Part shown: positions 34,894 to 35,402 of the stretch, piece by piece
Position numbering within the stretch: the first letter of the stretch is position 1
Layout: each line of letters opens with the position of its first letter
Source of the DNA: a virus
Strand: one strand, 5' to 3'
DNA length: 64,000 bases
IMG/VR virus record: IMGVR_UViG_3300048599_000816
Coordinates: 32,545 to 96,544 of that record
Notes under the pieces: generated by a model
The model's input: only the letters and a program-made list of their open reading frames with translations
The model's database searches: none
Told to the model about the DNA's origin: nothing
Position numbers and translations under genes: made by a program

Positions 34894-34947
34894 ACAAACT
34901 CCTTTGCTTGTTTTTTATATAATTATTTTTTTGTAATAAAACAAAAA

Positions 34948-34977
34948 GGAGAACCAGACTACCCTGCCTGGTTCTCC
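34948..34977. terminator. bidirectional rho-independent-type terminator hairpin
   Basis: ggagaaccag-actaccctgc-ctggttctcc with T-tracts on both strands. Confidence 0.6.
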
Positions 34978-35014
34978 CATTTTATAAACATATTTTGGAT
35001 TTCAGGTCCGACTT

Positions 35015-35091
35015 ATGTCTGTTGTAATCAAAATTCGAACACCATTGCTTCTTATGACAACTCCCTTGCTCTACTATTGAGCTACAGACCC
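35015..35091 (-). ncRNA. tRNA-derived/tRNA-like fragment (incomplete cloverleaf)
   Basis: Minus strand GGGTCTG-TA-GCTCAATAGTAGAGC matches acceptor/U8A9/D-arm; TTCGAAT T-loop consensus; 3' CAGACAT pairs with 5' end; T-stem and anticodon stem do not form by eye. Confidence 0.3.
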
Positions 35092-35363
35092 TCGGAATAG
35101 ACACATATCTATTTTGAGGGTCCGAGCAGACTTGCACCGCCAACCAGGGTTCATTAAGCAATTTTTCTTGTTTTGACCACCTTTAAATTAAGACTGGGAC
35201 TTTCGAAAAACTAACACTAATTTTGATAATGGTATTTAAACAACTAAACCCTTCTACTAAACTGCATTGCTTTAACCTGACTAAGCTACATTCACCATAA
35301 ATGGGTGAATGGTCCGATTTGAACGAACGATCATGCAGACACATTGTAAAAGAGCTTTACTAT

Positions 35364-35389
35364 CTCCCTTGTAAGTGGGAGTTTTAAAT
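35364..35389 (+). terminator. hairpin plus T-tract (plus orientation)
   Basis: ctccc-ttgtaagt-gggag then ttttaaat. Confidence 0.3.
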
Positions 35390-35402
35390 ATAAAGATAAA
35401 AT

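Follow-up and report, generated by a model that had tools for sequence, protein, structure and literature searches.

The question raised by positions 34894-35402 of the viral DNA analysed here is what is encoded by a gap that holds no open reading frame (ORF) between two minus-strand genes (34693-34893 and 35403-36173). The DNA is a 64,000-nucleotide (nt) part of IMG/VR virus record IMGVR_UViG_3300048599_000816 and is referred to, at its full length, as the window. A model-made description of the window (the original prediction) had correctly pointed to this gap, and among its candidates was a ~400-nt plus-strand non-coding RNA bounded by two hairpins. A non-coding RNA is indeed encoded, but on the opposite strand, as all tRNA-like features, both matches to a covariance model built from related loci (R1) and the strong terminator lie on the minus strand. 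The gap encodes a structured minus-strand RNA of ~430 nt (roughly 35380 to 34940) with two tandem, circularly permuted tRNA-like domains of the YrlA type, and its gene is genetically coupled to the gene of a DUF7873 family protein and not to Ro60. Taken together, the identity of the RNA as a YrlA-type twin tRNA mimic and its functional partnership with DUF7873 are judged reasonably probable.

Architecture of the RNA

Read along the minus strand, each unit consists of a closing (anticodon-like) helix, a 4-nt variable loop, a 5-bp T-arm with a 7-nt T-loop, a closed acceptor-like hairpin, U8-A9, a 4-bp D-arm, a single purine and, last, the strand that completes the closing helix. On the RNA the T-arm precedes the acceptor and D-arm, which rules out an ordinary cloverleaf; the original prediction had rightly found none, and circular permutation is the reason. 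Each tRNA-like domain tops a long stalk built from its own 5' and 3' flanks, and a conserved unpaired linker lies between the two. The features of the locus are as follows.

35403..36173, minus strand: DUF7873 gene, 256 amino acids (aa), Pfam PF25283 (E 5.5e-73), directly upstream of the RNA
35384..35401, minus strand: candidate promoter motif UUUUAUCUUUAUAUUUAA, directly 3' of the DUF7873 stop codon
35364..35381, minus strand: 5' hairpin CUCCC-N8-GGGAG, with no U-run after it on this strand
35246..35357, minus strand: unit A, a 12-bp basal stem (35346-35357 with 35246-35257) and a permuted tRNA-like domain; R1 match 35340..35255
35333-35338 with 35262-35267, minus strand: closing helix of unit A
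35329-35332, minus strand: variable loop of unit A
35312-35328, minus strand: T-arm of unit A, loop UUCAAAU
35289-35311, minus strand: closed acceptor hairpin of unit A, loop CCAUUUAUG, followed by U8-A9
35269-35286, minus strand: D-arm of unit A, followed by A26
35194..35240, minus strand: linker, mostly unpaired, with UUUAAAUACCA (35230-35240), UUAGUGUUAG (35211-35220) and CGAAAGUCCCAG (35194-35205)
35024..35181, minus strand: unit B, a long interrupted stalk (35171-35181 with 35024-35033; 35156-35162 with 35044-35050) and the second permuted domain; R1 match 35153..35054
35146-35149 with 35063-35066, minus strand: closing helix of unit B
35125-35141, minus strand: T-arm of unit B, loop UGCAAGU
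35085-35124, minus strand: extended 9-bp acceptor arm of unit B with an inner hairpin, followed by U8-A9
35068-35082, minus strand: D-arm of unit B, followed by A26 at 35067
34997..35009, minus strand: small 3' hairpin GGA-CCUGAAA-UCC
34938..34978, minus strand: intrinsic terminator with a 13-bp stem (34978..34947), a loop containing AGGGUAG and a U-run UUUUUGUUUU; predicted 3' end of the RNA

Parts of this architecture had been recognised by the original prediction. Its minus-strand tRNA 5' region (acceptor strand, UA, D-arm GCTCAATAGTAGAGC and A26) is present at 35091..35067 and its nested hairpin at 35085-35124, while the first tRNA-like unit (35255-35340) was missing from it. The sequence TTCGAAT (35033-35039), which had been read as a T-loop, is the 3' stalk strand of unit B, the true T-arms being located at 35125-35141 and 35312-35328. 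The 10-bp bidirectional terminator hairpin placed at 34948-34977 exists as a hairpin at 34947-34978, but its stem comprises 13 bp and a terminator scan calls it (34978..34947) on the minus strand only; this stem covaries within the window's clade. Similarly, the plus-oriented hairpin with a T-tract (35364-35389) does have a 5-bp hairpin and a T-tract on the plus strand, but on the strand of the RNA it constitutes the 5' hairpin, without a U-run.

These features exceed chance. The minus-strand fold of the gap reached z = -6.2, and, with both strands searched, a strict descriptor found exactly two matches in 64 kb (35328..35269 and 35141..35068), while R1 found only 35340..35255 (48.9 bits, E 6e-16) and 35153..35054 (45.7 bits, E 1e-14), all of them in the gap. 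RNAalifold analysis of eight relatives, which form the window's clade, predicted 81 pairs, 41 of them with compensatory changes, and left the linker unpaired. The structure of unit A was reproduced by folding (z = -3.3) and shows compensatory changes in close relatives, and unit B (z = -4.7) has compensatory pairs all along in the RNAalifold prediction. The linker motifs are conserved throughout the eight-member clade, and UUAGUGU-type motifs are enriched 8-11-fold downstream of DUF7873 genes, while the terminator-loop motif GG[GT]T[AT]AG showed no family-wide enrichment. Additionally, a 3' hairpin at the same position with other stem sequences was seen, as judged by eye, in related loci L001, L148, L004, L153 and L154. 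The second element is again a permuted domain in the window's clade; many loci have a canonical cloverleaf in its place, the anticodon of which varies widely and is often odd (such as aat, att, ata, tat, tta, cct or ccc).

The closing helix was left out of the descriptor and its pairing thus provides an independent test. It was 71.7% paired as opposed to 42.5% in shuffles, and its covariation score was 0.727 as opposed to 0.225 (0/500 shuffles); in slid registers covariation did not exceed 0.41, and all six pair types occur at each position. Among bacterial-locus matches (n = 60, with E <= 0.01, weak ones included, in an alignment fitted to the model), compensatory changes were found in 21/21 pairs, and 91% were paired compared to 63% in shuffled sequences; covariation is thus seen in each of the four helices of the domain. 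Furthermore, the contacts that hold a tRNA together are retained. The 15:48 Levitt pair is C:G in 67 sequences, U:A in 12 and unpaired in two (0/500 shuffles); sequences with U55 have G18 in 76 of 78 cases (the 18:55 elbow pair), and G55 goes with A18 in all four sequences that carry it, which come from three lineages and include unit B of the window. U8:A14 is present in 82/82 sequences with neither position constrained, and T54:A58 is, like U8:A14, 15:48 and 18:55, conserved or covarying. Since these tertiary contacts are kept, the domains very probably fold into a tRNA-like L-shape.

These results bear directly on three other candidates of the original prediction, i.e. a degenerate or intron-disrupted tRNA, a tRNA-derived attP core and a replication origin, for which the tRNA-like sequence, the intergenic position and the slightly raised GC content could be cited. 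The GC content is indeed higher in the gap (0.356, core 0.393) than in the window (0.32), but the enrichment is modest, as adjoining genes reach 0.36-0.40. A tRNA remnant is at odds with a conserved circular permutation that compensatory changes uphold in more than 100 loci, and ARAGORN, which models introns, predicted 0 tRNA or transfer-messenger RNA (tmRNA) genes in the window, where Rfam gave no tRNA match either; no canonical tRNA with an anticodon loop was thereby found. In the case of an attP core, it is the structure and not the sequence that is conserved, and the element is tied to one protein family, the same gene-RNA arrangement being present in the cultured phages FBKp24 and phiRSL1. 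As regards an origin, cumulative GC skew showed no switch, and no iteron-like repeats were found. This group of explanations is accordingly left with next to no probability.

Transcription of the RNA would start at a promoter that overlaps the stop codon of DUF7873, or would run on from that gene, and would end at the terminator (34978-34938). The candidate promoter motif UUUUAUCUUUAUAUUUAA is kept in L150, L148, L149 and L153, a sigma-70-like scan identified TAGAAA-18-TATATT at 35416..35387, and the counterpart of the motif in Klebsiella phage FBKp24, 'CTTTATCTT', is located inside an annotated promoter. The RNA might instead be a cis-acting 3' untranslated element of the DUF7873 mRNA, its tRNA-like structures serving as punctuation for processing or stability with no function in trans. 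It does lie on the same strand directly 3' of the gene, the window shows no terminator between them, and tRNA-like 3' elements can direct RNase P processing, as in MALAT1/mascRNA (PMC8457004). However, the annotated promoter of FBKp24 separates gene and RNA, and full tertiary mimicry, two domains, a conserved linker and ~430 nt of structure go beyond the needs of a processing signal, which makes a purely cis-acting element quite improbable.

Linkage to DUF7873 and relation to Ro60

Loci carrying DUF7873 relatives at 30-90% identity were fetched (82 viral, 63 genomic and several metagenomic), and a metagenome scan with a single protein yielded 4 loci. Descriptor matches were nearly all situated 100-300 nt 3' of the DUF7873 stop codon and on the same strand. 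R1 scored at least 36 bits directly downstream of DUF7873, again on the same strand, in about 75/81 viral loci and 35/63 genome loci, the latter from Cytophagales, Saprospiraceae, Chitinophagales, Myxococcota and others. No other conserved protein neighbour emerged from de novo ORF clustering across 144 loci. The DUF7873-RNA gene pair is thus widespread in phages, cultured ones included, and in Bacteroidota and Myxococcota. In a subset of the bacterial loci, among them L091 (Bernardetia sp. OM2101 chromosome, 5745-5830) and others of the Cytophagales loci L085-L093, a terminator comes immediately after DUF7873 and a tRNA-like RNA is missing there.

The phage collection holds 75 DUF7873 records, all annotated as hypothetical, from phages of Vibrio, Rhizobium, Gordonia, Klebsiella, Serratia, Arthrobacter, Ralstonia and others. 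Directly downstream of the gene, in a gap without annotation, R1 had matches in three of these phages, namely Klebsiella phage vB_KpM_FBKp24 (51.9 bits), Ralstonia phage phiRSL1 (50 bits) and Gordonia phage GodonK (42.9 and 37.9 bits). In FBKp24 (L155, MW394391.1) an annotated 'tRNA-Sup-TTA' at 4013-4097 (tRNA-Stop(tta) according to ARAGORN) overlaps the T-arm/acceptor strand of the permuted module at 4058-4161 and is probably a mis-annotation; in practical terms, such elements are open to being mistaken for suppressor tRNAs. In many loci, 'tRNAs' with odd anticodons come after the permuted module, and one-piece standard tmRNA genes were observed 3-4 kb downstream of the DUF7873-RNA pair in L004 (8624-9027) and L073 (9713-10115).

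Strong R1 matches were also observed inside phage tRNA arrays, namely in L069 (1133-1211 and 2473-2550), L073 (6258-6334 and 6482-6560), L026 (4216-4296 and 6752-6834) and L156 (873-952). In the two array matches of L069 the acceptor hairpins pair perfectly and have 4-nt loops, and neither match overlaps a predicted tRNA; at least some array modules are therefore further tRNA mimics and not tRNA dimers.

By definition YrlA is found no more than 4 kb from rsr, whereas the linkage to DUF7873 described here spans very distant lineages. A relaxed Rfam search placed YrlA (RF02553) best of 4,227 families, with a full-length match on the minus strand at 35162..35041 (28.6 bits, E 6.6e-4). At gathering thresholds no family was found in the window, and 13 loci gave tRNA and tmRNA only; the score of 28.6 bits is below the YrlA gathering score of 69 bits, which is a weak test as the genuine YrlA of mycobacteriophage Bxz1 fails it too. 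A blastn search of the gap region against the phage collection returned no match. As a positive control, R1 matched this YrlA upstream of the Bxz1 Ro60 (gp220) with 38.4 bits. The architecture is that described for YrlA, a circularly permuted tRNA mimic with an anticodon-like stem, variable loop, T-arm, closed acceptor stem-loop and D-arm (PMC4201824; 10.1101/312249). Two Y RNAs per locus are typical (PMC4201824), and as partner of the YrlA tRNA-like domain the structure authors invoke 'an unknown factor' (10.1101/312249).

The architecture, the Rfam ranking, the recognition of Bxz1 YrlA by R1 and the presence of two units are all in keeping with ordinary Ro60-dependent Y RNAs, i.e. a YrlA/YrlB-like pair whose Ro60 is encoded elsewhere in the ~427-kb phage genome (of which the window covers 64 kb) or by the host, with DUF7873 as an accessory or merely adjacent. 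A further point in favour is provided by L069, a 145-kb viral contig in which a 534-aa Ro60 (vWA_Ro60, E 4e-23; 3404-5008) lies directly upstream of DUF7873 (4998-5759) and overlaps its start by 11 nt, the RNA (5869-5949) being next and a further permuted module lying upstream of the Ro60. This arrangement places DUF7873 in Y-RNA biology; L069 is, however, the sole locus of 157 that combines the two genes. A tblastn search with the Bxz1 TROVE/Ro60 protein against the window and the 157 loci (1.48 Mb) was significant in L069 only (best window match E 3.9), and the window ORFs of at least 400 aa are all assigned to other families, with none left for Ro60. The strict Ro60 motif GNCGAAN0-1G occurs in 4/103 modules and in neither window unit. 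The linker sequence CGAAAG was considered as a Ro60 site and rejected, the clade having UGAAAG or UGAAUG at the same position.

The distribution of the two proteins in the phage collection points the same way. Ro60 was found in 355-358 records, mostly of Mycobacterium and Streptomyces phages, and many complete genomes of DUF7873 phages come from genera, such as Klebsiella, Serratia, Rhizobium and Ralstonia, for which there is no record of a Ro60 phage. For Gordonia, the 11 Ro60 records and the DUF7873 records (10 of 12 listed) show no overlap among those listed. Gordonia phages Sixama and GodonK have syntenic tRNA arrays; that of Sixama is headed by Ro60, and that of GodonK has no Ro60 at its head, with DUF7873 and the RNA located between tRNA-Asp and tRNA-Leu. 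Based on this record pattern and synteny, the data fit Ro60 and DUF7873 being two related, largely alternative systems, and a Ro60-dependent RNA in the window is considered unlikely. The RNA resembles a Y RNA/tRNA mimic, but falls outside the Ro60-related YrlA group as defined; it is a Ro60-independent variant of the YrlA-type tRNA mimics whose association with DUF7873 is previously undescribed, with no match in Rfam 15 or the searchable literature. The literature on DUF7873, phage tRNA-like RNAs and Ro60-independent Y RNAs yielded no description, although subscription journals may hold one.

The DUF7873 protein, RNA processing and a possible role

The DUF7873 family comprises 2,519 representatives at 50% identity, all of 244-272 aa, and is uniform and single-domain. 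Its conserved residues include E11, D13, E24, E122 and D147, many Lys/Arg and three Trp. A confident AlphaFold2 model (pLDDT 84.6) has long helices packed against an antiparallel sheet; a structure search of this model against the PDB and BFVD gave no informative match, and the protein had zero matches in PADLOC, NCBIfam and PHROGs. Among the non-significant Foldseek matches in the PDB, Cas7/RAMP backbone subunits of type I/III CRISPR complexes recur (8yha_E, 4qyz_F, 6s6b_I and 8bmw_H; E 0.1-0.5, TM below 0.15), which is possibly noise.

A clue to the processing of the RNA is given by the acceptor stem. An encoded N-CCA follows the 7-bp acceptor 3' strand in 47/93 distinct modules, with ~1.5 expected by chance, and an A-rich spacer comes next; the acceptor stem measures just 7-8 bp in 72/93 modules, and the discriminator base is not conserved. 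Such features make Mycobacterium smegmatis YrlA, with its 7-bp stem, a substrate of RNase P, and CCA is added after the cleavage (PMC4201824). In about half of the family, the acceptor loop with its encoded N-CCA would probably be opened by RNase P and 3' trimming to leave a two-piece tRNA-like RNA. The window units probably stay closed, like Salmonella YrlA, since they lack N-CCA and unit B has a 9-bp arm with an inner hairpin.

The N-CCA and the complete set of tRNA tertiary contacts could also indicate permuted tRNA genes, which would mature through RNase P, 3' trimming and CCA addition, possibly with ligation, into functional or two-piece tRNAs for translation or aminoacyl transfer. The 3' half is upstream of the 5' half and the acceptor stem is loop-closed, as in such genes, the element lies inside or at the edge of phage tRNA arrays, and a CCA-adding enzyme (42827-44146) and RlaP (46372-47496) are encoded in the window. 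However, there is no anticodon loop: the ends cannot be joined into one of 7 nt, and the anticodon-like helix runs on into an interrupted ~20-bp stalk built from the flanks. The U-N-A-G motif was rejected as an anticodon, its offset from the helix being variable. In addition to the unconserved discriminator base, the lack of N-CCA in the window copies and the extended 9-bp acceptor arm of unit B with its inner hairpin, no bacterial splicing endonuclease/ligase route for permuted tRNAs is known (10.1101/312249). Maturation into working tRNAs is thus rated about as improbable as a purely cis-acting element.

In the twin tRNA mimic model favoured here, DUF7873 would bind the RNA, most plausibly at the stalks and linker (U-N-A-G and UUAGUGU motifs), and form a Ro60-independent ribonucleoprotein (RNP) analogous to Ro60-Y RNA, while the tRNA-shaped heads would engage tRNA-handling factors. 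The role may lie in tRNA/RNA surveillance or in counter-defence, e.g. with the RNP as decoy or adaptor for host nucleases or repair enzymes that are directed at tRNA. Such a function is suggested by context, namely the tRNA arrays, the RNA-repair genes of the window and a reported case of a phage Ro60 homologue acting against a defence system (PMC11482910); the specific biological role is the weakest step of the model and must be called doubtful.

Several observations weigh against this model. It is gene linkage that points to RNA binding by DUF7873, a protein with a median pI of 6.9 and no recognisable RNA-binding fold, and the binding itself is, like the transcript ends, the number of RNAs (one or two) and their processing, a prediction. 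About 28/63 bacterial DUF7873 genes, e.g. in Bernardetia L091, have no such RNA downstream, and permuted modules also occur away from DUF7873 in some phage tRNA arrays (e.g. L069 1133 and 2473). N-CCA is found in neither window module. Finally, the Ro60 motif is short and degenerate, so that its absence is weak evidence, and a Ro60 gene may be present elsewhere in this phage, the window representing 64 kb of a ~427-kb genome.

A broader proposal is put forward tentatively, as possible and not as likely. DUF7873 and its twin RNA may represent a distinct Ro60-independent RNP class (~2,500 protein clusters in phages, Bacteroidota and Myxococcota), in which many RNAs would be opened by RNase P to a two-piece mimic with a free, possibly chargeable CCA; the tRNA pool would be its field of action, where it would serve either as a decoy or adaptor against host defences that target tRNA or as a tRNA-repair platform, and in phage tRNA arrays it would fill the niche that Ro60-YrlA has in other phages. 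YrlA-type mimics have hitherto been defined by Ro60 adjacency, and here the same architecture is tied to an uncharacterised family over hundreds of distant loci. This suggests that Y-RNA-like RNPs extend beyond Ro60 and offers, in DUF7873, a concrete candidate for a protein involved in the biology of tRNA mimics. As cultured phages of Klebsiella, Ralstonia, Gordonia, Rhizobium and Vibrio are among the carriers, the idea can be tested directly.

Genomic setting and comparison with known systems

Nearly every gene of the window lies on the minus strand, and the genes it carries point to a huge phage (DnaE-type polymerase, topoisomerase IA, NAD-dependent ligase, CCA-adding enzyme, RlaP, NAD-salvage enzymes and FtsK-like ATPase). 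The product of the gene 5' of the gap (35403-36173) is present on a 426,911-bp metagenomic contig, and contigs carrying relatives measure 424, 282 and 210 kb. The gap had been called the largest noncoding region but is the second-largest ORF-poor stretch of the window; the largest, 17213-17802 (590 nt, GC 0.29), holds just short ORFs (37-98 aa, both strands) and gave zero Rfam and zero R1 matches. The neighbouring genes of relevance are listed below.

30666-33302, minus strand: homologue of the eukaryotic major vault protein (MVP), 878 aa (MVP_shoulder 1e-22, Vault_3 5e-9), 1.6 kb downstream of the RNA
33447-34178, minus strand: R2K-clade ATP-grasp ligase, adjoining the MVP gene
42827-44146, minus strand: CCA-adding enzyme with HD domain, from the window protein family scan
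46372-47496, minus strand: RlaP nucleotidyltransferase, from the same scan

Genes with a flavour of RNA-end repair are grouped on the strand of the RNA (42827-44146, 46372-47496, 20920-21894 and 29312-29815), and the group also includes a protein that combines HD and OB-fold domains and one with a weak Macro-domain match; the window ORFs scanned yielded no RNA ligase. NAD/nucleotide salvage genes (15774-17003, 18423-19640 and 26825-27817) comprise an NMNAT-type cytidylyltransferase-like domain fused to a CoaE-like kinase, a nicotinate phosphoribosyltransferase and an inosine-uridine nucleoside hydrolase. The pair of MVP and R2K-clade ATP-grasp ligase is kept in the close relatives L001 and L150, and weaker MVP relatives were observed in huge phages LR756500/501/503. 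To date, reports of phage MVPs are limited to two gut phages (10.1101/2023.11.10.566534).

The presence of an MVP homologue nearby on the same strand, in a neighbourhood kept in L001 and L150, raises the idea that the RNA is a counterpart of vault RNA, in a vault-like phage particle built from this homologue. In eukaryotes, vaults contain small RNAs to which the TROVE protein TEP1 binds. MVP is, however, absent from the other 140-plus DUF7873 loci, being found only in L001/L003/L150, and the 75 DUF7873 and 3 MVP phage records do not overlap; MVP was rejected as a functional partner, and a vault RNA is held to be highly improbable.

Among known systems, two-piece tmRNA (permuted ssrA) shares with the RNA described here, taken as a DUF7873-linked tRNA mimic, a T-arm and acceptor 3' strand with CCA encoded before the acceptor 5' strand, with a spacer excised between them. 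It differs in that the D-arm of the present RNA is complete (4 bp) and an anticodon-like helix is present, with no tag reading frame, pseudoknots or SmpB-like partner; the ARAGORN and Rfam tmRNA searches were negative here, and related phages L004 and L073 have a separate standard tmRNA. Circularly permuted tRNA genes of Cyanidioschyzon merolae and some archaea, as they are summarised in 10.1101/312249 after Soma et al. 2007, likewise have the 3' half first, a loop-closed acceptor and ends that pair beyond the anticodon stem; compared with that summary, the present RNA has no reconstitutable anticodon loop and no bulge-helix-bulge, and it has a bacterial/phage setting and a long conserved stalk. 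With eukaryotic Y RNA-Ro60 and vault RNA-TEP1/MVP it has in common a small structured RNA encoded with or bound by a dedicated protein, here with an MVP homologue 1.6 kb away, while the TROVE protein is absent here and the MVP neighbourhood is limited to close relatives. The closest counterpart is YrlA, with which it shares the permuted element order, the 15:48 Levitt covariation, a long stem formed from the 5' and 3' ends, the frequent occurrence of two per locus, a location near tRNA genes in phages and, in some members, a 7-bp acceptor stem that RNase P could open. In contrast to YrlA, the DUF7873-linked RNA is not located beside Ro60, is without the GNCGAAN0-1G site and scores below the Rfam gathering threshold; it combines two tRNA-like domains (or one and a cloverleaf) in one ~430-nt unit with linker motifs of its own, and half of its family encodes N-CCA.

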